DNA of 64,000 nucleotides. Source: a virus. A program made the position numbers and the translations under genes. The notes beneath the pieces are model-generated. The model was not told the DNA's origin, did not search any database, and was given only the letters and a program-made list of their open reading frames with translations. Shown piece after piece: positions 1 to 17,937 of this stretch (within the stretch, counting starts at the first letter, position 1; each line of letters starts with the position of its first letter). The stretch lies in IMG/VR virus record IMGVR_UViG_3300042887_004758, positions 1 to 64,000 of that record. One strand, 5' to 3'.

Positions 1-69
1 TCAATCATGGTTTTCATTCATTTGGTTATTAAAATATAATTCGATTTTGGAAAATGTCAAACTTGAATA

Positions 70-657: not shown

Positions 658-716
658 TTTTTTTATAAAAATATATGTAAAAAAAATTCAATAGACAAAT
701 TATTTTGAAAAAAAAG

Positions 717-790
717 TGACCCCTATGGGATTCGAACCCATGACTCTCACATTAAAAGTGTGATACTCTAGCCAGCTGAGTTAAGAGGTC
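717..790 (-). tRNA. tRNA-Lys(TTT)
   Basis: Cloverleaf GACCTCT/AGGGGTC, anticodon arm TCACA-CT TTT AA-TGTGA, T-loop TTCGAAT; no encoded CCA. Confidence 0.95.
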
Positions 791-797
791 ATTAATA

Positions 798-1082
798 TCA
801 ATCCCGACAATGATATTTGATCAATACTCGGACATCTTCCAAATTCCGATATTTGTTTGCGATCTCATCTGCCTTAGCGGATGCTTCTTCAGGTGAAGAA
901 TTCATGATAGAAGAGAAACCTACATTATATGAATATTCATATTTCGGAAAAACAGAGTTACTTTGAACCTTACGACTTTTGAGACCATCGGAATAACTTA
1001 CTTTCTTACCCAACGCATTGTAGATAGATCGTTTGCGAGGAGAACAAATCTCAACAGAGTAGAAATCAAAAAGGTTTTCCAT
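798..1082 (-). CDS. hypothetical protein (94 aa)
   Basis: ORF preceded by TATATTTG host-type promoter element (~1103-1110). Confidence 0.7.
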   Translation of the reverse strand: MENLFDFYSVEICSPRKRSIYNALGKKVSYSDGLKSRKVQSNSVFPKYEYSYNVGFSSIMNSSPEEASAKADEIANKYRNLEDVRVLIKYHCRD

Positions 1083-1172
1083 ATCGGTTTTCTTCAGTGA
1101 AACAAATATACAACCAATTCACCGAATTACCAAATATTTTAAAGAAAAGGAAGAGTTCTTTTGTTTATTTAT

Positions 1173-1538
1173 TTATTCACCCATTATGATTGACCCATAA
1201 CGATTAGTCAATCGGTTTTCTAGTTTATCTAATCTACTGTCCAAATCACGATTAAAGTTCATCTCAACTTCATCGATTCGTCTGTGAAGGTGATCTTTTG
1301 ATAAGTCAAGCTCACGAGACAAATCATCAACAACTTCTGAAACACGTCTATCCATCATTTCACGATCACGAGCATAGTTGGAATGATCGTATGACATTTG
1401 TTCTCTTATGTCATCTATTTCTTGTTGTTTTTCTTGCAACAATTTGATTTTTTTGTTCACGGAAACTAAAAACACTATCAAACCAATAAAACCTGATAGT
1501 ATCATACCCCCCACGAAATTTAATAATTCTATTGTCAT
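1173..1538 (-). CDS. membrane-anchored coiled-coil protein
   Basis: N-terminal hydrophobic helix followed by heptad-rich charged region. Confidence 0.7.
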   Translation of the reverse strand: MTIELLNFVGGMILSGFIGLIVFLVSVNKKIKLLQEKQQEIDDIREQMSYDHSNYARDREMMDRRVSEVVDDLSRELDLSKDHLHRRIDEVEMNFNRDLDSRLDKLENRLTNRYGSIIMGE

Positions 1539-1575
1539 TTTTTAAATTTTTTTAATGTCAAAGAACTCTTCCTTG

Positions 1576-1648
1576 TCGAGAAAGCGAGACTCGAACTCAC
1601 AACTTCTGCGTCCCAAACGCAGCGCTCTACCAATTGAACTATTTCTCG
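1576..1648 (-). tRNA. tRNA-Pro(TGG)
   Basis: Acceptor CGAGAAA/TTTCTCG, anticodon arm CTGCG-TT TGG GA-CGCAG. Confidence 0.95.
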
Positions 1649-1658
1649 ATATAACTTG

Positions 1659-1738
1659 TGGGGGTAGATGGACTCGAACCACCGAACCGTTAGGAGCTGA
1701 TTTACAGTCAGCCGCAATTGCCACTATGCGATACCCCC
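1659..1738 (-). tRNA. tRNA-Tyr(GTA)
   Basis: Acceptor GGGGGTA/TACCCCC, anticodon GTA, long variable arm. Confidence 0.95.
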
Positions 1739-1743
1739 AAAAT

Positions 1744-1846
1744 GACCGTTTTTTCCCCCATTAGCCCACCCAAGAGAGGGACCTTGTGATGGATTTTAGT
1801 TCAGGAAGTCTGACAGGGTTTCCCCCATCAGACCGTTACCACGGAC
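1744..1846 (-). ncRNA. unclassified structured RNA in tRNA transcript
   Basis: GC-rich island with 11-bp hairpin GTCTGATGGGG-GAAA-CCCTGTCAGAC (1808-1833) and partly complementary ends. Confidence 0.45.
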
Positions 1847-1850
1847 AAAC

Positions 1851-2561
1851 CTACCCACTTACAACACCAATCATAAAATAATTTTCCTCGTAGATCAAGT
1901 AATTACCAACGGGCAAAGCATCAATTAAAAATAATTTATTTTCCAACATCAATTTCATCGGCATTTCTTTAACTTCTGTATGACCCACGACTTGAATATA
2001 TTGATCATTCAAAAAAGTATTTTTATTTCCCGACATCAAACTTCTTGGACGAATCCAAATCGGTGTTTGCATGATATCATCACCTGTTGGATCAAATATT
2101 CCGTTGAATTCAAAATTTCGTGGTTTGTATTTCCAAATTTCATTTACAAAGTTAGAGATAGGTTCTCCTTCCTTGTATCTATTTTGATTTACCAACCAAT
2201 CATAACCAATACCCGCATGTGAACACAAGATATTATCCATCTCATAACACATTTGAAGGTGGTGTAGGTTTTCTTTAATAAGAAGTTGAATTGCCGGTCC
2301 TGCACTCCGTTGAAATCCACTATACACTTCGTAAGTGTTGATATAATGGAAGTCATGATTACCAATCAACATAATAACCTCACATTCACCTTTTTCTTTG
2401 AACTCAATAATTTCCTTGAAATTATATTGTTGCTCTGCTGATCCAATGTCGAAACTGTCAAAATAATCCCCGATGAAAACAACCCGATCAGGTTTTTCAC
2501 TTTCTACGATTTTTTTCCATATGTCTCGACCATGAATATCTCCGATAAAGATTGTTTTCAT
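1851..2561 (-). CDS. calcineurin-like metallophosphoesterase
   Basis: Motifs GDIHG, GDYFD, GNHD, HAG, GHT. Confidence 0.9.
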   Translation of the reverse strand: MKTIFIGDIHGRDIWKKIVESEKPDRVVFIGDYFDSFDIGSAEQQYNFKEIIEFKEKGECEVIMLIGNHDFHYINTYEVYSGFQRSAGPAIQLLIKENLHHLQMCYEMDNILCSHAGIGYDWLVNQNRYKEGEPISNFVNEIWKYKPRNFEFNGIFDPTGDDIMQTPIWIRPRSLMSGNKNTFLNDQYIQVVGHTEVKEMPMKLMLENKLFLIDALPVGNYLIYEENYFMIGVVSG

Positions 2562-2577
2562 TAGTTTATTATTTTAG

Positions 2578-2675
2578 TAGTCAGGACAGGACTCGAACCT
2601 GTACGTATAGGATTAGCGCGTAGCCTATACACATCTTATTTGAGGAGTGCGTCTAACCAATTCCGCCACCTGACT
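2578..2675 (-). ncRNA. tRNA-like RNA (Leu-type D arm, degenerate anticodon arm, long extra arm)
   Basis: Acceptor AGTCAGG/CCTGACT, T arm ACAGG-TTCGAGT-CCTGT, D arm GGCGGAATTGGTTAGACGC; no canonical 5-bp anticodon stem. Confidence 0.75.
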
Positions 2676-2681
2676 GTGTTT

Positions 2682-2885
2682 TTAGTCTTTAAACTCTCGA
2701 TAAACAAACATGAAAAAACAAATGTAACTAAGGGTCAACCCACCCACTAGAGAGTATCTGATTAGCTCGTGAAGTAGGGTACCGTCGAGTGGCACATCCC
2801 AAAGGATACAAGTTAAAAAAACAATAAATGACAGGATGAAGAGTGTGAGTGATGCAAATCCTGTGATGTTGATTAGTTTTTTCAT
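2682..2885 (-). CDS. small two-TM membrane protein
   Basis: 67 aa, two hydrophobic segments. Confidence 0.65.
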   Translation of the reverse strand: MKKLINITGFASLTLFILSFIVFLTCILWDVPLDGTLLHELIRYSLVGGLTLSYICFFMFVYREFKD

Positions 2886-2913
2886 AGTGATTCAGATAAT
2901 TTTTATTTTTTTG

Positions 2914-2987
2914 CTCTCCCTCTTGGGCTTGAACCAAGGACCTATTGATTAACAGTCAACCGCTCTAACCGACTGAGCTAAGGGAGA
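2914..2987 (-). tRNA. tRNA-Asn(GTT)
   Basis: Acceptor TCTCCCT/AGGGAGA, anticodon GTT. Confidence 0.95.
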
Positions 2988-2991
2988 AAAA

Positions 2992-3084
2992 GGGTCGAGT
3001 TCAACACGCCAGGAAGGGCCCAACAAGCCTCTTTCACTGAAGAGGAAGGGCCCAACTAGCCTGTAGGTGAAGAACTTTCGACCT
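2992..3084 (-). ncRNA. rod-shaped pseudo-symmetric structured RNA
   Basis: Two copies of AGGCTWGTTGGGCCCTTCCT within a long fold-back closed by GGTCG/CGACC. Confidence 0.65.
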
Positions 3085-3087
3085 GTA

Positions 3088-3160
3088 AGAAGGAGACGAG
3101 ATTCAAACCCGCGACCATCAGATTGGAAGTCTGACGATCTACCAACTGAGATATTCCTGC
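3088..3160 (-). pseudogene. degenerate tRNA-Gly(TCC)
   Basis: Anticodon arm intact (TCC) but two acceptor mismatches, broken D stem and TTTG T-loop. Confidence 0.7.
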
Positions 3161-3165
3161 AAACG

Positions 3166-3238
3166 AGCCTCTAGACGGACTCGAACCCCCGACCCGCTCA
3201 TTACAAATGAGCTGCTCTACCAACTGAGCTATAGAGGC
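3166..3238 (-). tRNA. tRNA-Thr(TGT)
   Basis: Acceptor GCCTCTA/TAGAGGC, anticodon arm GCTCA-TT TGT AA-TGAGC. Confidence 0.95.
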
Positions 3239-3244
3239 AAATAG

Positions 3245-3318
3245 TCCTCCCACTTGGATTTGAACCAAGGACCTACGGTTTATGAGACCGCCGCTCTAAC
3301 CGATTGAGCTATGAGAGG
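3245..3318 (-). tRNA. tRNA with CAT anticodon, probably Ile2 (lysidine-modified)
   Basis: Cloverleaf with CAT; paired C1-G72 (not initiator), C4-G69, A73; TilS gene nearby. Confidence 0.85.
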
Positions 3319-3340
3319 GTTTTTTTATTATTCCGATACT

Positions 3341-3361
3341 TCAAAGAACACCACAAAGATA
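3341..3361 (-). promoter_or_regulatory. Bacteroidota-type -7 promoter element plus boxA-like motif
   Basis: TATCTTTG followed by GTTCTTTGA, ahead of the tRNA run. Confidence 0.7.
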
Positions 3362-3385
3362 TGAATTTTGGATTAATTAACCAAA

Positions 3386-3799
3386 TTAAACTAAACCTTT
3401 TTTCAGTACTTCTGAAACTAATTCTATATTCATTTCGGGATTGTGTTCCTCTCTATGACAATTCGAACAAAGGAGTTCACATTTTAAAAATTCTTGATTT
3501 ATGTAATCAATATTACGATTAGAAAGTATCCTCATATCTAATTTGGATTCTTTTTGTGTTGGATCAATATGATGAAATTCTAATGCCGCTATATTTTTAT
3601 TATAACCACATCTTTTACAAGATCCTCCAGCTTGTTCAATCAAGGATAGTTTTCTACGATAAGCCCTAATTGTTTGAGAATGATACGTATTTGTTTGTTT
3701 TTTTAATCTATGGTAGTGATGTTTTTGTTTACAAGCGCCAGAACAATACATTTTTTTTTGACCAGATAATTCAATATCACATACTATACATTTTTTCAT
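3386..3799 (-). CDS. HNH endonuclease with Zn-finger N-terminus
   Basis: CxxC...CxxxC; CxxCG...FHHIDP...LLCSNCHREEH. Confidence 0.85.
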   Translation of the reverse strand: MKKCIVCDIELSGQKKMYCSGACKQKHHYHRLKKQTNTYHSQTIRAYRRKLSLIEQAGGSCKRCGYNKNIAALEFHHIDPTQKESKLDMRILSNRNIDYINQEFLKCELLCSNCHREEHNPEMNIELVSEVLKKGLV

Positions 3800-3807
3800 G
3801 TTTTTAT

Positions 3808-4425
3808 TTATAAATATACAGTATTATGTTTTTGTTCATAATCCTTGATCATTTTTTTCACGACAGTTTTAAGACCGGGGTTGACCTTTAGAAGTTCGGG
3901 AATAATATTATGTCTGATTCTATTTCTTGAATATTCCACCGAGTTATTTGATTCGTCTTGAATAAAAGGTACATTTTTCCTTTTACACCAACTTTCGAAC
4001 TCAGACTTTTCAGTCAAAAGAAAAGGACGAATAACATTTTCCTTACGATAAGGGATGACCGATTGAAACCCCCTCGTCATAGTGAAAATATATGTTTCTA
4101 GACAATCATCCAAATGGTGACACGTTACGATTGGAAAATCAAATGATCTAAAAAACTTATACCTCAAATCAGACCACACCTTTTCCTTGTTGGATTTTGG
4201 TTTTTGATCCGTCCTTCCAACAAACAAACTCAAACCGTTTTCCTCACAATATTTGGTGATAAACTTTTCAGCATCATCACCGTGTTCTGTATTGTGATTG
4301 AAATAAAGGACGTGTGGATTATAATTTGATCTTCTCAAAAAATCCAAGACGGCCATAGAGTCAACCCCTCCCGAACAAGCAAGACCAAATTCAGAGGTTG
4401 GAATATTTCCGAGTACTTTGATCAT
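3808..4425 (-). CDS. tilS: tRNA(Ile)-lysidine synthetase (short, catalytic domain only)
   Basis: PP-loop SGGVDS, HHLDD, RP.L, D.SN...RNRIRH; start reset to 4425 because the longer ORF overlaps tRNA-Ser. Confidence 0.9.
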   Translation of the reverse strand: MIKVLGNIPTSEFGLACSGGVDSMAVLDFLRRSNYNPHVLYFNHNTEHGDDAEKFITKYCEENGLSLFVGRTDQKPKSNKEKVWSDLRYKFFRSFDFPIVTCHHLDDCLETYIFTMTRGFQSVIPYRKENVIRPFLLTEKSEFESWCKRKNVPFIQDESNNSVEYSRNRIRHNIIPELLKVNPGLKTVVKKMIKDYEQKHNTVYL

Positions 4426-4440
4426 AACATTATTTTTTTG

Positions 4441-4528
4441 TGGAAGGTAAGGGATTCGAACCCTTGCATCAGTTTCCCGACCTAGCGGTTTAGCAAACCG
4501 CCCCCTTCGGCCTCTTGGGTAACCTTCC
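4441..4528 (-). tRNA. tRNA-Ser(GCT)
   Basis: Acceptor GGAAGGT/ACCTTCC, anticodon GCT, long variable arm. Confidence 0.95.
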
Positions 4529-4537
4529 AACTTATTG

Positions 4538-5098
4538 TCACAATATAAGAACCGGTTGATTCAAATATTCGATCAATAAGGTTTTAACTTCGGAATTACA
4601 AATTCCATTTTTGTGATCTGTTGACAAAACAAAATGTTCCAAACCCCACCCTTGTTCTCCAAGTCTCATATCATCGATTGCTACCCATGATGCGACGTAA
4701 GGATGATTGTCCAACCATTTTCTGATTTCCAAAACTCGGGTTTGGTTTAACCCAAGACCCATCTTAAATTCGAACTCAGGTGGAACTTCACTTCGATCGA
4801 TGAAAGGGGTAAAACCGATTGGTTTTTTGATGATCCCCTGACTTTCATAATATTCACCGATTTCTTCCAAAGTTGCCCATGTTCTCCAATCAGAAGAAAT
4901 TACAATCTCACAATCGGTGTCCCTGATGACCTGATTCAGACATTCAACACAACTATGATTGAAGTTGTCAAACCTATCCAAGATTGGGATTTCTTTGATG
5001 GTGGGGCGTGGATCATATTTTTTTTGTTTATCGAATCTTGAACCCCATTCAGATTCCAAACAGATCACACCATCGTGATCCATAAAAATTACTTTCAT
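4538..5098 (-). CDS. HAD-family phosphatase (Swiss-Army-Knife RNA-repair-type HAD)
   Basis: FMDHDGV, ISSDWR, AIDD motifs; start reset to 5098. Confidence 0.85.
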   Translation of the reverse strand: MKVIFMDHDGVICLESEWGSRFDKQKKYDPRPTIKEIPILDRFDNFNHSCVECLNQVIRDTDCEIVISSDWRTWATLEEIGEYYESQGIIKKPIGFTPFIDRSEVPPEFEFKMGLGLNQTRVLEIRKWLDNHPYVASWVAIDDMRLGEQGWGLEHFVLSTDHKNGICNSEVKTLLIEYLNQPVLIL

Positions 5099-5116
5099 TT
5101 GTTTTAATTGTTGCGG

Positions 5117-5202
5117 TAGCCGGAGCGGGGATCGAACCCGCACGGACCCTTCGGTCCATTTGATTTTAAGTCAAACATGTATACCAATTTCATCATCCGG
5201 CC
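5117..5202 (-). tRNA. tRNA-Leu(TAA)
   Basis: Acceptor GGCCGGA/TCCGGCT, anticodon TAA, long variable arm. Confidence 0.95.
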
Positions 5203-5311
5203 ATGATTATTCCGATATGTCAAAGAACACCCAAAACATACAACAAATCTTCTGAAGTTTCAACCCCTCCCTCTATTCTATATTTTTGGGGAGGGGAGAG
5301 GAGCCTACTAT

Positions 5312-5632
5312 TTAGTAGGCGTCCATCTCATCAATCACGTAAGCCACGTTTACGTTTACCTTGTCTTCGTGGTTTCGGATGTCCACAATGAACCCACCCA
5401 TCCCGAAGTTGGTCACTCCTTCCTGTTCGTAGGAAGTGAATGCTTGGTTCATCACGACGGTGGTATAGTCCTTGAGTGTTTGGACGTTGAAAGAGTCGGG
5501 TGACACTTCCAACCAAGAAGTATACATCGCCTCACGGTTCAGAGCCTTTACGACCTTCGCTACGGTTTCGTAGTCGAAGTTGTTGGTTACACGGCCAATC
5601 CGGTTTTGGGGGTTGGAGATGACGTTTTTCAT
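5312..5632 (-). CDS. hypothetical protein, likely highly expressed early gene
   Basis: GC3-richer codon usage; TACCTTTG promoter element upstream; hairpin downstream. Confidence 0.75.
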   Translation of the reverse strand: MKNVISNPQNRIGRVTNNFDYETVAKVVKALNREAMYTSWLEVSPDSFNVQTLKDYTTVVMNQAFTSYEQEGVTNFGMGGFIVDIRNHEDKVNVNVAYVIDEMDAY

Positions 5633-5736
5633 GGTGTGATTGTTTTAACACCACAAAGGTATGGCAGGAGATTGATCTTTCCAAATCTTGATGTGACTTT
5701 TTTCGATCTACGTAAATTAATCTTTAACTGAAGGTA

Positions 5737-6711
5737 TTAATATTCTTCAGGTTTTTCAAAATGTATCACTTCACTACCTCCAGGACCTACTTCATAGTTT
5801 TTATTAGGGAAAACATATACCTTACCACCTATTTTTGCATAAACAATATAATCAATACTTTTACTCTTATAGTCGTTCTTCATACCATAAGTTTTAACAA
5901 AATATTTACCGTCTTCTACGAGGAGTTTAGATAAAGGTTTTATTTGAAAACTCTGACCCCCAATAATCATGTCTATTGATTTGTGTCGGTCAATTATAGA
6001 ACCAGGAGGAAACAACTCAACATTACCTGGTATATGATTAGAAATTACTTCTGAGGCGTATACCTCAGTATTATAACCATTTTCTATTGACCTCCATTGG
6101 ATATCCAACAACTCTTTCATAAAATCTTTGTCGTTTTTAAATACATCCACTAACCATTCCTCTAAATCTCCGTTACCTTCATTATTCCATTTTTGTGATA
6201 TTTTTCTTTGTACTTCTTTTTTTGTATCAAAATAATTCATAATTGACCATGACTCACCCTTACCCGTTCTCTCACCTATTGTATTTATATCTCTAATACC
6301 TGCGCTATATATTTCATCTTGTTCTTTCCAATTATTTGGAAACGCCTTTTTTAACGCACTCCTAATTAAAGTTGATTTTACTTCTCCACTATCCTTACTA
6401 CCGAACAAAATTTTACGAATATCAGGTTTTATTTCTTCAAGTTTCCAATAGTCAACGTAACCCGATTCTCCATTTTTCGTAAAATTAAAATCTGTAGGAG
6501 TAATACCTGTCAACTTAATATTATTTCCAATCAAATTTATATATGTATTTTTACCATGTGAATATTGGCCTTCTTCGGTTTTTAAGTCGTTGAAGTATAC
6601 CCTCCACGGAGCGTATGTTGGTTTATAAGCCCTCATATAACTAAAACTAAAGGTTACAGGACCGTCACCTGAAGTTAATTCTTTTAGAATTTTGCGTATT
6701 TGCTCTCTCAC
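5737..6711 (-). CDS. putative PD-(D/E)xK nuclease-domain protein
   Basis: C-terminal E...ID-x8-QIK motif; N-terminal IRKILKE; TATTTAT upstream. Confidence 0.5.
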   Translation of the reverse strand: MREQIRKILKELTSGDGPVTFSFSYMRAYKPTYAPWRVYFNDLKTEEGQYSHGKNTYINLIGNNIKLTGITPTDFNFTKNGESGYVDYWKLEEIKPDIRKILFGSKDSGEVKSTLIRSALKKAFPNNWKEQDEIYSAGIRDINTIGERTGKGESWSIMNYFDTKKEVQRKISQKWNNEGNGDLEEWLVDVFKNDKDFMKELLDIQWRSIENGYNTEVYASEVISNHIPGNVELFPPGSIIDRHKSIDMIIGGQSFQIKPLSKLLVEDGKYFVKTYGMKNDYKSKSIDYIVYAKIGGKVYVFPNKNYEVGPGGSEVIHFEKPEEY

Positions 6712-6809
6712 GTAAATAAATATTCCTAAATTAAGAAATGTTTAATCAAACCTTTTATCCCACAAACTAAAGATTTGTGGGTTTTTCGGTGGAGTTAATA
6801 AAACAAATG

Positions 6810-6881
6810 CGGTCTATGAGGGTTCCGACCCCTCTACTCCTGCGTGACAGGCAGGTATGATAGCCACTTCACCAATAAACC
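6810..6881 (-). tRNA. tRNA-Asp(GTC)
   Basis: Anticodon arm CCTGC-CT GTC AC-GCAGG; atypical T-loop GTCGGAA. Confidence 0.9.
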
Positions 6882-6885
6882 TTTG

Positions 6886-6959
6886 TACTCGGTACGGGAT
6901 TCGAACCCGTGATTTCTTCCGTGAAAGGGAAGCGTCCTAAACCACTAGACCAACCGAGC
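6886..6959 (-). tRNA. tRNA-Glu(TTC)
   Basis: Acceptor GCTCGGT/ACCGAGT, anticodon TTC. Confidence 0.95.
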
Positions 6960-6977
6960 ATTAATTTAGTTATATAT

Positions 6978-7069
6978 AAGTGTGGGTGAGAATCGAACTC
7001 AGACTCTCCGAATTTCTCCGAAGTTGGGAAACCAACCCGCCTTTGTTTATTTGTGGTCATGCCCACACC
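6978..7069 (-). ncRNA. tRNA-like RNA (acceptor and T arm, no D or anticodon arm)
   Basis: GGTGTGGG/CCCACACT stem, TGAG-TTCGATT-CTCA T arm, two short internal hairpins. Confidence 0.65.
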
Positions 7070-7084
7070 TAATATATAACATTG

Positions 7085-7155
7085 TTTCCCCATCAGGACT
7101 CGAACCTAAAACCACGGAACCAAAATCCGTTGTATTACCATTATACTATGGGGAA
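7085..7155 (-). tRNA. tRNA-Gln(TTG)
   Basis: Acceptor TTCCCCA/TGGGGAA, anticodon TTG. Confidence 0.95.
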
Positions 7156-7156
7156 G

Positions 7157-7230
7157 TGGAGGTCGGAACTGGATTCGAACCAGTGTTGAATCTTTTGCAG
7201 AGATTCACCTAACCACTCGGACATCCGACC
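7157..7230 (-). tRNA. tRNA-Cys(GCA)
   Basis: Anticodon GCA, U73, encoded CCA. Confidence 0.95.
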
Positions 7231-7234
7231 TTAT

Positions 7235-7310
7235 TGGCACGTCAGGTAGGACTCGAACCTACAACTTTCGGTTTTGGAGACCGACGCTCTACCAATTGAA
7301 CTACTGACGC
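7235..7310 (-). tRNA. tRNA-Trp(CCA)
   Basis: Anticodon CCA, G73, encoded CCA. Confidence 0.95.
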
Positions 7311-7316
7311 ATTTTG

Positions 7317-7417
7317 AAGTCAGGACAGGATTCGAACCTGCAATGTGGCCTCGTAAAGAGGATCATACCTTTTCGACTTACCGAGCTTGAGCCCGCTTAC
7401 ATATCCACTACCTGACT
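7317..7417 (-). ncRNA. tRNA-like RNA, same acceptor/T-arm family as 2578-2675
   Basis: AGTCAGG/CCTGACT acceptor and GCAGG-TTCGAAT-CCTGT T arm; unrelated interior. Confidence 0.7.
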
Positions 7418-7424
7418 ATTTTTG

Positions 7425-7496
7425 AGCAATGGATGGGATTCGAACCCACAACATCCAGTTTGGAAGACTGGAACTCTACCATTGAGCTACCATTGC
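7425..7496 (-). tRNA. tRNA-Gly(TCC)
   Basis: Acceptor GCAATGG/CCATTGC, anticodon TCC, U73. Confidence 0.95.
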
Positions 7497-7513
7497 TTTT
7501 TTTTCCTCATATA

Positions 7514-7534
7514 TCAAAGAACGACACAAATATA
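7514..7534 (-). promoter_or_regulatory. Bacteroidota-type -7 promoter element plus boxA-like motif
   Basis: TATATTTG (7534-7527) then GTTCTTTGA (7522-7514) ahead of tRNA-Gly. Confidence 0.7.
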
Positions 7535-7538
7535 CAAC

Positions 7539-7567
7539 AAAAAACCCGAACTTTTGTTGTTCGGGTT
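7539..7567 (-). terminator. intrinsic terminator (attenuator 3:4 hairpin)
   Basis: AACCCGAAC-AACAAAA-GTTCGGGTT followed by T tract. Confidence 0.8.
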
Positions 7568-7591
7568 ACATTTTTTTTAAAAATATACTTT

Positions 7592-7675
7592 TTATACCCG
7601 AACAAATGGACATGATGGTTCCTGCTGCCAATCACAGCCGTTAAATCCTTTGATATGTCCTTTTTTGTTGAGCAT
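7592..7675 (-). CDS. putative attenuator leader peptide MLNKKGHIKGFNGCDWQQEPSCPFVRV
   Basis: 27-codon ORF after TATTTAT motif (7699-7693) and A-rich leader; 3' end complementary to terminator 5' arm; not in ORF track. Confidence 0.7.
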   Translation of the reverse strand: MLNKKGHIKGFNGCDWQQEPSCPFVRV

Positions 7676-7748
7676 TGTTTTAATTTCTGATTATAAATAT
7701 ATCATATATTTTGAAAAATTCAAATTTTTTTTTGGGGAATATATTTAT

Positions 7749-8429
7749 ATGAAAAAGATAATCATGTTAAAGGTAAATCAAGAAGAAAAGGAAAGGATAT
7801 TGAAACTTCATTCAATTGAAGAACAAGCAACTCTAGCAGGTCAGACAAGTGTACCTACTGCTTCTAATCAGTCGAATCAATCTTCAGGGAATGCACAAAA
7901 TAATCGTACATTAGAATTTATAGAGGTACTACGTAAATTGACCGCCGCGTTTCATAATCCGGGTACAAATGTAAAAAAGGCACTCGAAGCATTTCAACGT
8001 GCAAATCCGGCAAAATTCGACGATATTATCCGAGAACTTATGAAAGAAACTACCAAAATTGACACATACAATGGATTAACCGCTGCACTCAATGGTGAAT
8101 ACGGTTTTCAAAATCGAAAAGACTTGGTGAATATAAATAAAGTTTTTACTGATAACAATTCTAAATTTAAATTGGATTGGAAAATAGGTACTGGTGGTGA
8201 TGATGTTAAGTCAATAAGACTCATATTGAATCCGAACTATAAAGCACCTCAGACTCAATCTAAACCTCAAACTCAACCTCAAACTCAACCTTCAACAGTA
8301 AAAAAAGCTATTTCAACAGAAGTTCAGAATAAAACAAAGGAAATACAAAAGGTTTTAAGTTTGACACAAACAGGTACGATGGATCAAGCAACCATAAATA
8401 AAGCTTACGAAATGATAAGTAAATTATAA
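7749..8429 (+). CDS. putative virion protein with Q/P linker and PG-binding-like C-terminus
   Basis: EEKERILKLH..EEQ N-terminal motif; TATTTAT directly upstream; start reset to 7749. Confidence 0.7.
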   Translation: MKKIIMLKVNQEEKERILKLHSIEEQATLAGQTSVPTASNQSNQSSGNAQNNRTLEFIEVLRKLTAAFHNPGTNVKKALEAFQRANPAKFDDIIRELMKETTKIDTYNGLTAALNGEYGFQNRKDLVNINKVFTDNNSKFKLDWKIGTGGDDVKSIRLILNPNYKAPQTQSKPQTQPQTQPSTVKKAISTEVQNKTKEIQKVLSLTQTGTMDQATINKAYEMISKL

Positions 8430-8434
8430 TTACT

Positions 8435-8887
8435 ATGAAAAAATTCATACTGACAGAAAGTGAAAAAAAACATATAAAAAATTTATATGGTTTGAATGAA
8501 CAAGCACAAACAACGACTCCACCAACAAACTATACAATTAAACAATTACAAGATTTGGTAATAAGTAAAGGGGTTAAAATTGTTCCAGATAATAGATATG
8601 GTCCCAAAACAGCAGGCGCGATATTGCAGTTGTTGAATTCTAAACCTACGACACAAACTCAATCTCAACCTCAACCTCAATCTCAACCTCAACCTCAACC
8701 CATCAAAATTGACCCCACCCAAACCCGTACCCCTCTCAATATTAATCTTCAATCTCAACCTGAAGTTAAACCTCAACCTCAAACTCAACAAGAGACAACA
8801 CCACCTGTATCGGCACCCGAAAAAATAAAACCTAAAGGGCCAAATAAAATACCGACAAATCCTCCAAAACCTCAACTTCGAAGATAA
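8435..8887 (+). CDS. putative virion protein, PG-binding-like motif plus Q/P-rich tail
   Basis: LTESEKKHIKNLYGLNEQ N-terminus; LQ...DNRYGPKT; QP repeats. Confidence 0.7.
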   Translation: MKKFILTESEKKHIKNLYGLNEQAQTTTPPTNYTIKQLQDLVISKGVKIVPDNRYGPKTAGAILQLLNSKPTTQTQSQPQPQSQPQPQPIKIDPTQTRTPLNINLQSQPEVKPQPQTQQETTPPVSAPEKIKPKGPNKIPTNPPKPQLRR

Positions 8888-8907
8888 ATAATATTACATA
8901 CAGTGAT

Positions 8908-8941
8908 AAAAAAAAATAGGTCATACGACCTATTTTTTTTT
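8908..8941. terminator. bidirectional intrinsic terminator
   Basis: A9-TAGGTC-ATAC-GACCTA-T9 between convergent genes. Confidence 0.85.
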
Positions 8942-8962
8942 GTTATAATTAAATAATTGGAG

Positions 8963-9457
8963 TTAATATGAGAAACTTGTCATAAACTCATTATACATCT
9001 TTTCCGCTTCAACGGTAAAGATCCCACAGAAAGTTTTGGGTACTTCAACCTTTTTTACAAATTTCATATTTGCTTCTTCAGGAGTTCTATTCCCCTTCCT
9101 TGAATTACATTTCTTGCAACAAGTCACAAGGTTTGCCCAAGTATTTCCTCCTCCCCTTGATTTTGGAATTACGTGATCGATGGATAGGTCATTTTTGGTT
9201 CCACAATAAACACATTCATGATTATCTCTTTTGTATATCTTGTGTCTTGAGATACGTGATTTCACGGGTCTAAAACTTACATAATGCAAAAGACGAATGA
9301 TCAATGGTCTGATAAAATTTCCGATCGAAGTTGCGATGGGTTTTTCACCTCCTTTCAAAATTTCAGCTTTTCCTTTATGTACCAAGACGAATCCCCTCGT
9401 TAAAGTTGTTGTATTGATGGGTGTATAATCTGCGTTTAAAACCAAAACAGCTTCCAT
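8963..9457 (-). CDS. HNH endonuclease
   Basis: VLVLNADY, RD..CVYCG, SIDHVIPKSRGG..W.NLV.CC..CN..KG. Confidence 0.9.
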   Translation of the reverse strand: MEAVLVLNADYTPINTTTLTRGFVLVHKGKAEILKGGEKPIATSIGNFIRPLIIRLLHYVSFRPVKSRISRHKIYKRDNHECVYCGTKNDLSIDHVIPKSRGGGNTWANLVTCCKKCNSRKGNRTPEEANMKFVKKVEVPKTFCGIFTVEAEKMYNEFMTSFSY

Positions 9458-9542
9458 AATTAAAATTTTAAATGAATTATAGTTTATTTTAATTTTATAA
9501 TCAAAAAAAACCCTCCACTTTTTGGTGGAGGGATTCAGGTAT

Positions 9543-9776
9543 TCAACCGTTTTGTTCTTCCTTATTCGGCAGTTGGAACCGTTCTTTGTTTTTCAGGAAA
9601 CCAAAGACGACCAACACGAAACCGACAAGTACTTCAACTGCTTGTACTGTTCCGTCCAAGTTCTCTGTTAGATAATCAACCAAAGGAACATAACTGTTCA
9701 ATCCAAAGAATACCAATAAGGTACCGATAGCTGTGAGAGCGTGTCTTACAACTGATTTAAATTTTTCTGTGTTCAT
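9543..9776 (-). CDS. putative holin-like membrane protein
   Basis: Two TM segments, VRH.LT..G motif, charged C-terminus; TATTTAT upstream. Confidence 0.55.
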   Translation of the reverse strand: MNTEKFKSVVRHALTAIGTLLVFFGLNSYVPLVDYLTENLDGTVQAVEVLVGFVLVVFGFLKNKERFQLPNKEEQNG

Positions 9777-9805
9777 GGGCGTTATTGTTTTATATCAATA
9801 AATAT

Positions 9806-9961
9806 TCATGAACTTCTGAAATTCTTAATTAAGTTATCGATTAATATAATCCCTCCGAGAATAAACAAACCTCCGGGAAGAAAAAAAACCATCAAAGTTA
9901 ACGTTTTGATAAACCAATTCTGTGATTTATAATTCTCAAGGTATTTATAAAAAGTATTCAT
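9806..9961 (-). CDS. possible 51-aa membrane peptide (not in ORF track)
   Basis: MNTFYKYLENYKSQNWFIKTLTLMVFFLPGGLFILGGIILIDNLIKNFRSS. Confidence 0.35.
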   Translation of the reverse strand: MNTFYKYLENYKSQNWFIKTLTLMVFFLPGGLFILGGIILIDNLIKNFRSS

Positions 9962-9968
9962 TTTATCT

Positions 9969-10406
9969 ATGAAATTTTATCTGAACGAAAAACCATCGGT
10001 TGAATTTGACAAAAAATATGGAACAAATGTTTCATATGAATATGATTTTCATCCGTATAATGATCAATATCTTTGGAATGTTTTTATTAACTGTTTGGAT
10101 GAGGATGATGAGGATGCTTGTGAAGAAATGGATGAATTATTACCTTTTATTTTAAGTAAGTTTCCCGATGAAGGATTTGAATCTATTTTTGGAAGTGAAC
10201 CGATGACCGTTGTCTTTGGGATGCTGAGCGGGTATCATCCAAAAGATATAATTCAATACGTTTCAGGTATAACTTATAAGAATAATATTGAAGCCAAAGA
10301 ATTTGAAGAAAATATGAGGGAACACGTAGATCCGGATTTTAATTTCAACGGATGGGTTCCCTCATATTATACTCTGAAAAAACTCAACAAGTTCTTCAAC
10401 TTTTAA
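9969..10406 (+). CDS. hypothetical protein
   Basis: ORF with TATTTAT upstream. Confidence 0.7.
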   Translation: MKFYLNEKPSVEFDKKYGTNVSYEYDFHPYNDQYLWNVFINCLDEDDEDACEEMDELLPFILSKFPDEGFESIFGSEPMTVVFGMLSGYHPKDIIQYVSGITYKNNIEAKEFEENMREHVDPDFNFNGWVPSYYTLKKLNKFFNF

Positions 10407-10825
10407 ACAAGGACATTGACAAGCATCGATGCGTCCCCTTCCCATTTGTCAATCTGACTCTTTGGGATTTTGATTTCAAATTCACCAAGAGATTCGATCT
10501 TGTTTTCAATTTCTTGACGGAACGATTCAACTTGATTCTGTGTGGTTGGGAACTTTACTCCCAAGTGTTTGGAACATACGGGTCCGATGCTGGTGAGTTG
10601 TGACATCGGAGTTTTAAGAGTTGCTCCGCAACAACGGCAAACCTTCCCATTTTCTTTGGTGAGCTTGATCACCAAGTTGATGTTCGTCTTATCAAGGTCA
10701 ACCAAACCTACCACGTCCACAACTCGGGGAAAAAAGGTCAATCCATATTTTTCTTTGATCTGCATTCCGAACTTGCGGTTCATTTTGATCGTGTTGCCAA
10801 CACCCAAGTTGAATACCTTTTTCAT
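10403..10825 (-). CDS. Zn-ribbon (DUF6011-like) protein
   Basis: CRCCG..LK.P.S...IGPVC; start reset to MKKVF; TATATTTG upstream. Confidence 0.7.
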   Translation of the reverse strand: MKKVFNLGVGNTIKMNRKFGMQIKEKYGLTFFPRVVDVVGLVDLDKTNINLVIKLTKENGKVCRCCGATLKTPMSQLTSIGPVCSKHLGVKFPTTQNQVESFRQEIENKIESLGEFEIKIPKSQIDKWEGDASMLVNVLV

Positions 10826-10927
10826 GTCGTTTGTTTTTTCAGAACACAAATATATGAATTGTTTTTCAAAAAAACAAATTTTTTCAGTCCGATCGATATT
10901 TATATAATAAAAATTTCCTGATTAGAT

Positions 10928-11824
10928 ATGAAAAATAAAAAAATTATTTCTGAAATTGATAGGATTAAAGAAATTATGAATCTTATTGTTGAAGCCGAGG
11001 TTGTAACAAATTACGATAAAGATTGGGATTATAAAAAAGATGGAAACATGTTCTATGCGAAGAAAAAAAATGAATCCAATTGGAAACGATTGAGTGGTAA
11101 TGCATTGAATTCGGTAAAACGACTTGTTTTTAAGATTAAAGATCAGAGTGGAAAATCTACAGATAGTGATCAGGACTCAAAAAATAAGGGTATAAAGGTT
11201 GGTAATATTGCACCCGAACAAAGAAGTCAAATAAATTTCAACAACCTGAGTACAACAAGTAGTACTTCGAACATTTGTAAAACTGATTCAACGAATTGTG
11301 CACAATTTGTTAATGATATCAGACCCGATTTGGAATATGTTGGTGACGCTTGGCTCGCTTATCAGAACGAAAACCTGGGTAAACGAATCCATAATTCATT
11401 CAATGATCTTACAACTGATGAACAAAAAAAAATTAAGGATTTGTGGTTGAAAATTTACAAGTCAGGCGGAGATTATGATAATTACAATACTGAAGTGAAA
11501 AATGTAGTGAGTCAATTAGTTCCCGGCACAGGCAAAGTGACAGATTTAAAACTTAATGATGTGGTCGGGATTTTTTATCCACCATCAACACATCATGGAG
11601 AAGCATTTTATGAAGGTGGAAAAAAATGGTTCAAAGACAATGAAAAAGGGGAAAAGATAATTGGAAAAACTCTTGGAACAGGTCTTGGTTGGGGTATGAA
11701 TACTCACATAGGTACAGTTTCGGTAGTGAAAGATGGTGTCCCTTTGGTCTTCCATAATGTCAAAGGAAATGTAAAAAGTGAACCGGCTTCCAATCTCAGA
11801 ATAGCATGGATCAGAAGAAAATAA
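10928..11824 (+). CDS. putative NlpC/P60-CHAP-like amidase, virion-associated
   Basis: NCAQFV (Cys), G.AW, HIG...HN (His); N-terminal EIDRIKEIM motif. Confidence 0.6.
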   Translation: MKNKKIISEIDRIKEIMNLIVEAEVVTNYDKDWDYKKDGNMFYAKKKNESNWKRLSGNALNSVKRLVFKIKDQSGKSTDSDQDSKNKGIKVGNIAPEQRSQINFNNLSTTSSTSNICKTDSTNCAQFVNDIRPDLEYVGDAWLAYQNENLGKRIHNSFNDLTTDEQKKIKDLWLKIYKSGGDYDNYNTEVKNVVSQLVPGTGKVTDLKLNDVVGIFYPPSTHHGEAFYEGGKKWFKDNEKGEKIIGKTLGTGLGWGMNTHIGTVSVVKDGVPLVFHNVKGNVKSEPASNLRIAWIRRK

Positions 11825-12573
11825 TTAGTATCAGAGAAGAAGTTCAAAGGATTAATGAGTTAATTTTTATCACAGAACAAGGTTCTGTTGATAGATTTGT
11901 AGATAATCAATCCAAAACTCTATTAGAACCATTTTTCAAGCAATTTAATGAACTAAAAAAACAGTACCCCTGTGTGCCCTCTAATTTTGTTATACCCTTA
12001 TCAAATTTAATTAATAAAGGATATGATAAAAATTATTTAAAATATGCTTTATCTATAATAGGTAGAGAAAGTTCTTTCGAATCAGGTACAAGGTATAATA
12101 CATACGGTCAGGCAAAAAACATTTTATCGACATTTGGTGTCGACACTTCAAGCGGACCTGCACAAATGAAACCTTCAACAGCGAAAGAACTTGGGTTTAC
12201 TCAACAAGATATTCTAAACAGAGAAAAGGCTTTGTTGGCGGTATATAAATATATCCAAAAATACATACAGGAATCTTCAAAAATGGGATTCCAAAACAAA
12301 CCATCAAACGTAAAAAATGGTTCAGGTAATGCTCAGATTGATATTACCATAGCTTCATATAATAAAGGTGTTCGTGACACAATAGTAAAATGGTGTGAAT
12401 CAAAATTACCCGAAAGAAAAAAACAAGGATTAAAAGATCCTTGTTTTGGTACGAATGGAGATAAGAGTAAACCAATAATGAATTATGTTCCGAATTATGT
12501 TGATGGAAACGCATCAACTCACGGATATATACAAGAAGTCGTACTCAATTACAAAAAATTTAGTTGTTTTTAG
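11806..12573 (+). CDS. putative lysozyme-like / lytic transglycosylase
   Basis: GRESSF (catalytic Glu), GPAQMK, SYNKG. Confidence 0.65.
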   Translation: MDQKKIISIREEVQRINELIFITEQGSVDRFVDNQSKTLLEPFFKQFNELKKQYPCVPSNFVIPLSNLINKGYDKNYLKYALSIIGRESSFESGTRYNTYGQAKNILSTFGVDTSSGPAQMKPSTAKELGFTQQDILNREKALLAVYKYIQKYIQESSKMGFQNKPSNVKNGSGNAQIDITIASYNKGVRDTIVKWCESKLPERKKQGLKDPCFGTNGDKSKPIMNYVPNYVDGNASTHGYIQEVVLNYKKFSCF

Positions 12574-13292
12574 TCAATGGTGAGGTAAGTTGTTGGTTCA
12601 CCCAATGATAATAACTTGGAAATAATTTTTGGTGAAGAGTCGAACCCCACCGAAAATTCACCATTATCGAAGTAGTAATCAACAGAACTTCCACCATCAT
12701 AGAGAATTGCATTTTTCAAATTGAATTTGTTTGCTTCCTCAATAATTTCAGCGATAGTAACTAAACCATTAAATTTAGACGCGATAATTACAATATCTCC
12801 ATTATTATTTTGACCAACAATATTTCTGTACGTCCTTTCTTTGGCATGGTTCATACGAGTTAATCTTTTATTCACCCTACCGTTTTTGATCCCAATTAGA
12901 ATGGATTGAGAGGCAAAAGTTACATTTTTTGGACAGCTAGGTGACACATGACTTTTTCCATTTTTTACGTAAAAATATCCACCTCGATCAACTCTACTTG
13001 ACTTTCTTTTTTTGTTGATTACAACCAATCCGATGGGATTTTCGTTGGGATCAAAAAAATTTGTGTTCATATAGAATGTAGAATTACCTCTTTTATTTTC
13101 GGAGACTTCGAAGTCAGTATTCTTGTCAAAAATGAACACATTCATTTGGTTGTTTTCCAAAATCTTCACGGACTCGTTTTCATACTGTACTCTATAATCT
13201 TGAAATGCGGAAGTAATTCCGTTATTCATGAAAAAATTACATGAAGACAACAATATACTCATGCTCAAGAGAACTAAAAGGATATTTTTCAT
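12570..13292 (-). CDS. lipoprotein, phosphodiester glycosidase (NAGPA-like) family
   Basis: Lipobox LSSC; MN.NFF, R..VG, A..YDGGSS. Confidence 0.7.
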   Translation of the reverse strand: MKNILLVLLSMSILLSSCNFFMNNGITSAFQDYRVQYENESVKILENNQMNVFIFDKNTDFEVSENKRGNSTFYMNTNFFDPNENPIGLVVINKKRKSSRVDRGGYFYVKNGKSHVSPSCPKNVTFASQSILIGIKNGRVNKRLTRMNHAKERTYRNIVGQNNNGDIVIIASKFNGLVTIAEIIEEANKFNLKNAILYDGGSSVDYYFDNGEFSVGFDSSPKIISKLLSLGEPTTYLTID

Positions 13293-13404
13293 GATTCAAA
13301 TTTACAAAATTTAGATGAAAAAAAAAAATTAATTCGTAACTTTATTCGAGGTCTAATAAATATATATCATATCGACTAAGATTACTGAGTGTTCAAAATA
13401 CATT

Positions 13405-13995
13405 TTATCTTCTAACATTTACAGTGGAGTAAAACCTTCTTTGTTCTTTGTCGTAAAGGGTGGATATTGAAATACGATTAAATTTTGGATCTGTAAGAAT
13501 TTTCCAATGAGAAGGACTGTCTCGATATTGAGTTAAAAACATACTTTCCTCGGTTTCATCGAATCGATAATTGAAAGCCACACATTCTCCAACACCGTTA
13601 TATCCGACATATTCGATTCTTTCGGATAAGGTATACTTACCTTCACTATGTGAAATTTTCCTGTTTTGTAGTTGCCATAAGTTGTGAGGATGACTTAAGA
13701 TAAGATACATAGAAGAATCATAGGATAATGAATTCAAATTCATTTCTCTTCTTACCTTATTCAGATGGTTATAAAAATTTAAACTCATTTGATGACATAG
13801 TGAATCGATATTTGTCTCATCAGGATCTAAGTTACGGGTGTTTGAGATGATGTGAGGGTGTTCTTCACAAGAAACAATAATCGTGTCTTTTCCTACTATT
13901 TCAAAACAGGTATAGAACTTTGGTGACATACCTGTGATCTGAGATTTCATCGATATAGAGAATAACAAAAGAGGGATGAGGATCCAAAATTTCAT
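13405..13995 (-). CDS. secreted CAP-domain protein
   Basis: Signal peptide; LN.VR...L, SH, GEC.A, SPSHW.IL. Confidence 0.75.
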   Translation of the reverse strand: MKFWILIPLLLFSISMKSQITGMSPKFYTCFEIVGKDTIIVSCEEHPHIISNTRNLDPDETNIDSLCHQMSLNFYNHLNKVRREMNLNSLSYDSSMYLILSHPHNLWQLQNRKISHSEGKYTLSERIEYVGYNGVGECVAFNYRFDETEESMFLTQYRDSPSHWKILTDPKFNRISISTLYDKEQRRFYSTVNVRR

Positions 13996-14066
13996 GTATT
14001 TCAACGTTTTTAGAAAGATAAAAATATTTAAATTCTTATACAACTATTTATTAAGAAAAAATTAGT

Positions 14067-15368: not shown

Positions 15369-15370
15369 TA

Positions 15371-15397
15371 AATAACCCCCTTTTGAAGGGGGTTATT
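15371..15397. terminator. bidirectional terminator
   Basis: AATAACCCCCTT-TTG-AAGGGGGTTATT. Confidence 0.8.
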
Positions 15398-16010: not shown

Positions 16011-16065
16011 ACCACAAATATAATAAAAATTTTTGTAATTCACAAAAAGTCTTTAATTATTTTAT

Positions 16066-16590: not shown

Positions 16591-16646
16591 AGTACAAATA
16601 TAAAAATAAATCCCCAACTCTCAAAATAATCGGGGATTATATTTAG

Positions 16647-17035: not shown

Positions 17036-17041
17036 ATATTA

Positions 17042-17062
17042 TCAAAGAACACCACAAATATA
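17042..17062 (-). promoter_or_regulatory. -7 promoter element plus boxA-like motif of tmRNA
   Basis: TATATTTG-TGGT-GTTCTTTGA. Confidence 0.7.
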
Positions 17063-17935: not shown

Positions 17936-17937
17936 AG

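Follow-up and report, generated by a model that had tools for sequence, protein, structure and literature searches.

Leader ORFs matched to the tRNA arrays behind them: a probable ribosome-mediated attenuator in a large phage of Bacteroidota and its relatives

Attenuation by a translated leader is known from the amino-acid operons (trpL, hisL, leuL, pheL and the multivalent thr and ilvGMEDA leaders) and also from pheST. Such an attenuator comprises a short leader ORF with regulatory codons, mutually exclusive 1:2, 2:3 and 3:4 helices, and an intrinsic terminator ahead of the regulated genes, and a ribosome terminating at the leader's stop codon masks segment 2. Each of these elements has an observed or predicted counterpart in the phage module described here. 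Judged from its sequence, the module would meet the criteria of a trp/his-type attenuator, while departing from that type in its target, in the way it samples codons and in a boxA-like element. Its regulated genes are tRNA genes rather than genes for enzymes, and it would sense the supply of the very molecules encoded downstream. Like the ilv and thr leaders, in which several amino acids are sensed by one leader, the phage leader is multivalent, but it has no run of a single codon and instead represents each of 6-13 different tRNAs by one codon or a few. Unlike the amino-acid attenuators, the module is phage-borne and is followed by a boxA-like motif after the terminator.

T-box riboswitches similarly report tRNA status through a terminator/antiterminator decision ahead of translation-related genes, but they do so by direct tRNA-RNA binding and sense one tRNA species, whereas the phage module has no Stem I, specifier loop or T-box sequence and its sensing would be ribosomal. 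An Rfam search of positions 1-20000 of the analyzed DNA, with E values up to 1, returned only tRNA, tmRNA and chance matches, and the criteria for a T-box were not met. A further parallel is the antitermination of rRNA operons by boxA and Nus factors, where, as in the phage module, the motif precedes long untranslated stable-RNA transcripts. The nearest published conditionally expressed tRNA array is the trn operon of Anabaena sp. PCC 7120, an accessory array that is silent by default and comes on when translation is impaired (PMC8421152; PMC10272220). In contrast to the phage leader, the repressor TrcR governs that operon at the promoter by binding to direct repeats (PMC8421152; PMC10272220), and the operon is chromosomal or plasmid-borne, not phage-borne; the terms "leader", "attenuat" and "terminator" do not occur in PMC8421152. 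A full-text literature search found no description of leader-peptide or attenuator control of tRNA genes or arrays. The purpose of phage tRNA genes has itself been debated for decades, and the proposals include codon compensation and the replacement of tRNAs destroyed by host defences (PMC10264068; PMC11464382).

The window, i.e., the whole 64-kb stretch of DNA analyzed here, is the first part of a 109,981-bp IMG/VR virus record (IMGVR_UViG_3300042887_004758) that is estimated to hold about one third of the genome; it is a fragment from an uncultured large phage of Bacteroidota. ARAGORN and Rfam located a tmRNA gene and a series of tRNA genes on its minus strand, and the leader region occupies a 250-bp gap between a plus-strand gene (start at 7749) and tRNA-Gly (7496-7424). 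Coordinates of the leader, terminator and tRNAs are all given on the minus strand, and the features are as follows.

7721-7724, minus strand: TTTG, a -33-type element (consensus match only), separated by 19 nt from the -7-type box downstream
7694-7701, minus strand: TATATTTA, the putative -7-type promoter box for the leader transcript, ending 18 nt before the AUG
7592-7675, minus strand: leader ORF, 27 codons plus a TAA stop, read from the sequence and the ORF list
7655-7675, minus strand: segment 1, the anti-antiterminator arm, AUG included, pairing with 7613-7594 in both the minimum-energy and the centroid fold
7619-7639, minus strand: codons 13-19 (G-C-D-W-Q-Q-E), specifying the amino acids of the six tRNAs in the adjacent array
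7594-7613, minus strand: segment 2, within the final codons of the ORF, with the core TTGTTCGGGT (7605-7596)
7579-7593, minus strand: small A/U hairpin predicted by the fold, located in the spacer of 24 nt that separates the stop codon from segment 3
7537-7567, minus strand: intrinsic terminator, made up of segment 3 (7567-7559), a 7-nt loop, segment 4 (7551-7543) and a T run
7527-7534, minus strand: TATATTTG, a second -7-type box and possible bypass promoter, forming the first half of a 23-nt cassette (7534-7512)
7509-7522, minus strand: GTTCTTTGATATAT, a boxA-like motif that follows the terminator and precedes the first tRNA
6809-7496, minus strand: tRNA array of Gly, an odd tRNA-like element (7417-7317), Trp, Cys, Gln, Glu and Asp (ARAGORN and Rfam)

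The original prediction, which was made from the sequence alone, held that an unannotated ORF at 7675-7592 spells out at codons 13-19 the amino acids of the six tRNAs downstream. The ORF list, ARAGORN and Rfam agreed with it in every particular, and both programs called tRNA-Gly(tcc), Trp(cca), Cys(gca), Gln(ttg), Glu(ttc) and Asp(gtc) at 7496-6809. Low-threshold ARAGORN calls for three odd tRNA-like elements were mutually contradictory and were left unused. The perfect 10-bp complement between TTGTTCGGGT (7605-7596) and ACCCGAACAA (7566-7557), which constitutes the 2:3 pairing, and the intrinsic terminator were likewise present where they had been placed. The terminator (AACCCGAAC/GTTCGGGTT, 7567-7543, plus the T run) was recovered by a consensus scan and has a G+C-rich stem of 9 bp; in the absence of termination data, its activity is inferred. 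The core of segment 2, TTGTTCGGGT, is a near-copy of the terminator's 3' arm, and segment 2 stops 1 nt short of the stop codon. The 1:2 pairing proved to be longer than had been supposed, extending from the AUG through GGACAU (7675-7655) with 7613-7594, so that the start codon is paired beside the stop codon and the ORF spans one long hairpin. Thus, the 1:2, 2:3 and 3:4 layout of trp/his-type attenuators that had been proposed holds for the window, and the ORF, the pairing alternative and the codon match recur in diverged contigs, as described below. The TATTTAT motif previously noticed ahead of the ORF belongs to TATATTTA (7701-7694), a -7-type box of the Bacteroidota kind. The distance between this box and TTTG fits what we take to be the Bacteroidota promoter consensus, and the evidence for a leader promoter is limited to these consensus matches (TTTG, 19 nt, TATATTTA). 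Nothing in our analysis supports the suggestion that this promoter acts late.

Past the end of the window's contig, a near-identical 88-kb relative adds tRNA-Thr, Leu(tag), Arg(tct) and Ser(tga), and with these included 19 of the 22 codons of the leader core have a phage tRNA of the right codon family. No phage tRNA for the His, Ile and Phe codons of the core, or for the Val and Arg(CGG) codons of the leader tail, was found in the contig or in the 88-kb relative. The unmatched His, Ile and Phe codons look like leftovers of a sister-family leader (see below), with which the window leader has an H-I ... F ... C ... W backbone in common. A PP-loop (TilS-like) gene and a gene with a HAD "Swiss Army Knife RNA repair" domain were also observed among the tRNA genes, and both may bear on what triggers the module.

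Several statistics set the leader region apart from its surroundings. The fold of 7700-7530 had a z-score of -5.1 against 200 dinucleotide shuffles, and three of the five occurrences of GTTCGGGT in the 64-kb window fell in the leader region. Among 219,922 seven-codon windows, taken in six frames over the whole 110-kb contig, exactly one carried the amino-acid set {G,C,D,W,Q,E}; it corresponds to codons 13-19, and the array for these six tRNAs begins 123 nt downstream of it.

Relatives retrieved through the downstream 324-aa protein or through a tRNA-Gly 23-mer were nearly identical to the window, which made a conservation test with them impossible. The same leader was found in seven contigs, six of them nearly identical to the window and the seventh, L356, more diverged. 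The 27-codon length and frame of the window leader were kept by seven relatives, and the segment 1 block by all eight that were aligned (8/8), while the terminator stem was invariant and its loop variable. The few changes within this close clade were mostly non-synonymous (codons 5, 21 and 23), and all were compatible with the fold, being located at unpaired positions or converting G-C to G-U. As they fit the RNA fold and are mostly non-synonymous, these changes neither prove nor exclude translation of the ORF. In L356 (leader at L356:650-733:-), segments 1, 2, 3 and 4 were conserved and most of codons 9-23 were rewritten, and the ORF still had 27 codons. Its array consists of Trp, His, Gln, Glu and Asp, without tRNA-Gly, and its leader has one Gly codon versus three in the window leader; the promoter box between terminator and array is absent. 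The gene directly upstream of the module in the relatives encodes an HNH endonuclease and has the same orientation; in the window, the HNH gene and the leader module are separated by two inserted plus-strand genes (7749-8887). No leader homolog was found in contig L010 or in four other HNH-linked contigs. A BLAST search of the region against cultured phages matched only the tRNA genes, and a search with the sister-family module gave no match.

Beyond the close clade, the module was found to recur in approximately 100 other phage contigs from IMG/VR and metagenomes, with differing terminator stems. In viral contigs, a scan for a 2-3-4 word pattern revealed a sister family of 31-32-codon leaders that head arrays beginning Phe, Ile, Gln. 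That first scan required segment 2 and was hence circular for this feature, and it was replaced by two collections that did not require it, one assembled by the post-terminator motif and the other, from metagenomes, by the terminator stem and the motif. The metagenome sample required only this type of terminator stem and the boxA-like motif, and comprised 86 distinct instances. In 81 of them, an ATG-initiated ORF 18-45 codons long ended 10-45 nt ahead of segment 3, as compared with 9.8 ± 2.9 when the upstream sequence was shuffled, and a tRNA followed within 150 nt in all 69 instances with enough downstream sequence (69/69). An exact copy of TTCGGGT was located 35-50 nt (in one case 56 nt) upstream of segment 3 in 49/86 instances, and a 6-mer copy was located upstream of segment 3 in 70/86. 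The distance from stop codon to segment 3 was 19-34 nt, with one outlier of 45 nt, and mostly 23-26 nt; in the window it is 24 nt. Of 84 distinct leaders, 69 had a TAnnTTT[G/A] box no more than 60 nt upstream of the AUG, versus 20 in shuffles, and the commonest distance from box to AUG across the class was 18 nt.

The diversity of the terminator stems, of which at least six kinds (e.g., CCCATCTC, CCCTGAAC, CCCGAGAT and GCCCGATT) were found among 18 representatives, allowed each ORF end to be compared with its own stem and with the stems of others. Complementarity of the last 12 codons to the cognate stem exceeded that to every non-cognate stem in 15 of 18 representatives (mean score, 8.9 for the own stem versus 5.8 for non-cognate stems), including 10 of the 13 that had been collected without requiring segment 2. 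In the window, too, the complementarity of segment 2 to segment 3 exceeded that to all non-cognate stems. This covariation of stem and ORF end provides comparative support, unavailable from the close clade, for the predicted alternative between 2:3 and 3:4. The original prediction had named covariation of the small ORF and the 2:3/3:4 pairing, as well as tracking of tRNA content by the leader codons, as comparisons to be made among relatives; the former was borne out by the ORF and own-stem counts (81/86 and 15/18), and the latter by the composition of the leaders.

In the viral set (18 representatives), 98 of 103 amino-acid types of the arrays occurred in the cognate leader before segment 2, versus 70.9 ± 6.0 of 103 when leaders and arrays were permuted. 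An independent metagenome set (19 representatives) gave the same picture, with 146 of 156 array types covered versus 118.6 ± 4.6 after permutation and 294 of 469 leader residues inside the array set versus 215 ± 12.6; none of 20,000 permutations attained the values of the metagenome set. The match extended to codon families, in that the Arg codons followed the Arg anticodon in 7 of 8 cases, AGA occurring with tRNA-Arg(tct) and CGY with tRNA-Arg(acg).

Individual leaders illustrate how closely this is observed. The array behind the leader L104:5115-5210:- (Phe, Ile, Gln, Lys, Val, Tyr, Cys, His, Arg, Trp, Leu, Asn ... Ile, Met) has 13 amino-acid types, 12 of which appear in the leader before segment 2 along with a single other residue (23/24), and the leader L057:2158-2235:- reads T-T-A-D-R-T-E-A-E ahead of an array of Glu, Ala, Asp, Arg and Thr. 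A second leader is present in L057, but the locus ends so soon that only one tRNA of the array behind this leader remains. Two leaders and two arrays were found in L161 (L161:6680-6754:- and L161:3087-3197:-), where 24/27 and 11/19 core residues match the leader's own array and 4/27 and 7/19 match the other one (the latter by a hand count from the same output). Cellulophaga phage phi17:2, which is cultured, also has two leaders and two arrays. In the first leader (L470:2148-2216), 11 consecutive codons are read by all seven tRNAs of array 1, both Leu isoacceptors included; this leader uses Arg CGT and array 1 has tRNA-Arg(acg), whereas the second (L470:3108-3191) uses Arg AGA and array 2 has tRNA-Arg(tct). 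In seven sister-family leaders, the variable columns numbered 6, 5 and 14 at the first, second and third codon positions, and most replacements remained within the amino-acid set of the array. This pattern points to selection on what is decoded rather than on a folded peptide.

The region between terminator and array had been thought to hold a separate host-type promoter. A -7-type box is indeed present there, but the element also includes a boxA-like motif, and among 84 modules a promoter box between the terminator and the motif was present in 35 and absent in 49. In several of the modules without a box, the T run abuts the motif. The cassette at 7534-7512 is repeated identically before the tmRNA gene (17062-17040) and with three mismatches before tRNA-Met (3361-3339), in both places without any leader; GTTCTTTGA with a variant 3' half is found at three stable-RNA genes of the window. 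A related 19-mer, GTTCTTTGACATATTGGTA, occurred in 108 stretches of genome sequence, nearly all from Bacteroidota, and in the four genomes that were checked it followed the spacer tRNAs and preceded 23S rRNA by 12-27 nt; the window copy departs from the 19-mer in its 3' half. We considered the motif as a tRNA promoter and rejected this on account of its position inside rrn spacers, right before 23S rRNA, and it is because of this same position that we read it as boxA-like. It is also found after the terminator in the relatives, and on the strength of its sequence it places the host in Bacteroidota. By analogy only, as there are no data on NusB/NusE binding, such an element would protect a long untranslated transcript; in rrn spacers, the stretch that contains it could instead be part of a 23S processing stem. 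A literature search with the literal motif returned only unrelated primers.

These observations bear directly on the alternative that survives best, namely that the small ORF, or the RNA from it, is a free-standing gene or sRNA complete with promoter and terminator. In that case the terminator would merely insulate the array from the ORF (and, in the relatives, from the upstream HNH gene), and the array would be transcribed from the promoter at 7534-7527. A cassette of promoter and boxA-like motif does lie downstream of the terminator and, being identical to the one before the tmRNA gene and recurring before tmRNA and tRNA-Met where no leader exists, could feed the array regardless of any attenuator. 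Likewise, in contig L010, which encodes an HNH protein of 90% identity, an 84-codon ORF and the cassette are present without a leader or attenuator, and attenuator RNAs of other bacteria can act in trans once termination has released them (PMC6614838). However, this alternative leaves unexplained why leader composition tracks the array, both across phages and within one genome, why a copy of the terminator's 3' arm lies inside the end of the ORF, and why the distance from stop codon to terminator is constant. Moreover, the 49 of 84 relatives without an internal promoter box have arrays that can be reached only through the terminator. We therefore consider an independent gene or sRNA unlikely, although the box at 7534-7527 means that in the window part of the array expression may bypass the attenuator.

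A translated leader could also sense the general capacity for translation, or could act through nascent-peptide arrest as tnaC and erm do, without regard to specific tRNAs. The window leader and the sister family share a core of Cys, one or two residues and Trp, which could mark an arrest motif, and a response of tRNA arrays to general translational stress has a precedent in the induction of the cryptic arrays of Anabaena (PMC8421152; PMC10272220). The codon-to-array match is nevertheless retained in other leader families that have no Cys-Trp core, and leader composition shifts with the array down to the Arg and Leu codon families, which makes it distinctly unlikely that the specific tRNAs are irrelevant. 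A conditional terminator that works without ribosomes, by binding of a protein, a small ligand or a tRNA to the leader RNA, with the ORF incidental, would account for the strong structure of the leader (z = -5.1) and for close-clade substitutions confined to unpaired positions or G-C to G-U changes. We regard it as highly improbable, given that Rfam detected no T-box or riboswitch in positions 1-20000 at E values up to 1, that an ORF was kept in 81/86 instances as against approximately 10 expected by chance, that third codon positions were the most variable, and that L356 retained its 27-codon frame while its loop sequence was rewritten; across families the loops share composition and not sequence, and ligand-binding RNAs do not evolve in this way. 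A chance ORF with chance complementarity in an AT-rich intergenic region, for which one could cite only that short ORFs are common and that the close relatives are too similar for a conservation test, is already contradicted by the statistics, i.e., the codon window unique in the contig, the fold z-score of -5.1, the clustering at the leader of three of the five GTTCGGGT words, the terminator-arm copies inside ORFs that match their own stem, the ORF in 81/86 instances versus 9.8 expected, and the failure of all 20,000 permutations to reach the observed match, so that it is practically ruled out.

That leader and terminator form a real, conserved module matched to its array is, in our judgment, almost beyond doubt. 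With good though not full confidence, and in the absence of expression data, we interpret this module as a ribosome-mediated (leader-peptide) attenuator placed before a phage tRNA array, which opens when decoding is slow. The alternative structures that the original prediction had proposed were folded with a modelled ribosome, only the RNA 3' of the ribosome being allowed to fold. Equilibrium folding with a masked ribosome was dropped, as segment 1 then pairs around the ribosome, which is physically implausible. Untranslated window RNA was predicted to fold as 1:2 plus the 3:4 terminator, with 9 of the 10 nt of segment 2 paired upstream. With the A site at any of codons 2-20, the footprint model left segment 2 free and the 2:3 helix was the minimum-energy fold, whereas from codon 21 to the stop codon segment 2 was covered and the terminator was favored. 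The claim that a ribosome stalled at codons 13-19 frees segment 2 is thus upheld in this model, but the restriction to those codons is not, the effective window being codons 2-20, with codons 13-19 among the last positions that open the switch. Among the relatives, the 1:2 helix was variable, and two had the antiterminator as their minimum-energy fold. In many relatives the terminator was far more stable than the 2:3 helix, and there the switch would have to be kinetic; classical attenuators likewise decide kinetically.

The attenuator as we envisage it would operate as follows. A host-type promoter (TTTG, 19 nt, TATATTTA) would start a short transcript encoding the 27-codon leader, the translation of which we infer; the third-position variability in the sister family and the frame retained by the diverged L356 are indirect evidence for it. 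Were the leader not translated, segments 1 and 2 would pair, the 3:4 terminator would form and transcription would stop at approximately 7540; a ribosome smoothly reaching the stop codon would cover segment 2, and the terminator would form again. If a ribosome instead stalled in the leader, on account of a tRNA that is scarce, uncharged or damaged, segment 2 would be left free and the 10-bp 2:3 helix would be formed before segment 4 is synthesized. RNA polymerase would then read through, transcribe the boxA-like motif and enter the tRNA genes, and the motif, by analogy with rRNA operons, would confer resistance to later termination. As the leader codons are those read by the tRNAs behind the terminator, the circuit would regulate tRNA supply by negative feedback. 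Both the direction of the switch and its physiological trigger are inferences, and attenuation presupposes a sufficiently tight coupling of transcription to translation in the Bacteroidota host; how tight this coupling is there is not known, which counts against the attenuator.

A leader spelled in the amino acids of its array and followed by a switchable stop suggests that the phage probably makes the tRNAs of the array only when ribosomes run short of them. More tentatively, but still with the balance of evidence in its favor, the recurrence of the module may mean that Bacteroidota phages carry a general, unpublished class of tRNA-supply homeostats, in which arrays are placed behind "codon sampler" leaders. 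The speed of leader translation would then report the capacity of the cell to decode exactly the codons of the array, and a shortage would open the terminator and allow a boxA-type element to carry RNA polymerase through the array. Host anticodon nucleases are one conceivable cause of such a shortage, although this trigger is speculative. The cultured phage phi17:2, with its two leaders, makes the model testable at the bench in Cellulophaga baltica.

If the attenuator is confirmed, classical attenuation would be extended from the supply of amino acids to that of tRNAs, and a rare case of regulated termination upstream of stable-RNA genes would be added to those known. The module also suggests an annotation rule for the regions ahead of tRNA arrays, namely to look for a small ORF and a terminator with a copy of the terminator's 3' arm inside the ORF. 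For the long debate over phage tRNA genes, it would supply a demand-driven logic of expression: at least these phages would express their tRNAs on demand, the leader would name the codons being monitored, and each leader would be a record of which host tRNAs the phage expects to lose.

Upstream of the 27-codon leader ORF that precedes the terminator and tRNA array, two plus-strand genes containing Pro/Gln/Thr-rich, low-complexity stretches were found at positions 7749-8887 of the window. Compared with three related loci in which an HNH gene lies directly upstream of the leader (L003, L005, and L006), these two genes constitute an insertion separating the leader from the HNH gene, and the leader's promoter box directly abuts the end of this insertion. 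The HNH endonuclease gene itself (8963-9457, minus strand; PF14279, PF01844) has relatives in 69 viral loci (L008-L076) at 40-100% identity, and in ~40 of the 69 a tRNA or tmRNA gene occurs within 3 kb of it.

Several unusual tRNA-like elements were also observed. A 101-nt element on the minus strand between tRNA-Gly and tRNA-Trp (7317-7417) possesses an acceptor arm and a T arm plus a long insertion; its Rfam tRNA score of 24.4 bits is below the cut-off, low-threshold ARAGORN calls were contradictory, and the element is kept in L003 and L006. Two further minus-strand regions, 3088-3160 and 2578-2675, gave Rfam tRNA matches of ~37 bits each and no ARAGORN call at default settings. At a low ARAGORN threshold, one of the two resembles tRNA-Gly(tcc) in degenerate form; the second resembles a Leu-like tRNA of type II whose anticodon loop is enlarged. 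In the sister family, where 31-32-codon leaders head arrays beginning Phe, Ile, Gln, ARAGORN reported tRNA-like genes with 2- or 4-nt "anticodons" (tg, ta, tt, and caag) within these arrays, downstream of the leaders (L104, L105, L125, L403, and others). These genes may represent tRNAs with unusual anticodon loops.

The 19-mer form of the boxA-like motif was also found in gut-type viral contigs (L133, L136, L139, L141, L145, and many more), in which a conserved G+C-rich hairpin is followed by the motif and then by conserved, non-tRNA sequence. In the region L348:380-620 (minus strand) of the near-identical, 88-kb relative G006, an additional cassette of -7 box and boxA-like motif precedes ~140 nt of unassigned sequence, after which come tRNA-Thr and tRNA-Leu(tag); the window's contig ends short of this region. 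Within the window, the same cassette as at the tRNA array occurs at 17062-17040 (minus strand), upstream of a phage tmRNA gene (16646-17035, minus strand) whose tag peptide ends in EEVYVA at its C-terminus. tmRNAs with similar tags are also present in the relatives L003, L012, L016, and L072.

Finally, two minus-strand protein genes, 3808-4422 and 4538-5080, are situated among the tRNA genes. One of the pair encodes a PP-loop ATPase domain, as in TilS (PF01171; E = 1e-32); its partner encodes PF18143 (E = 1e-23), the HAD domain found in "Swiss Army Knife" RNA repair proteins. The occurrence of these two domain genes together suggests that they jointly form a tRNA modification and repair module.
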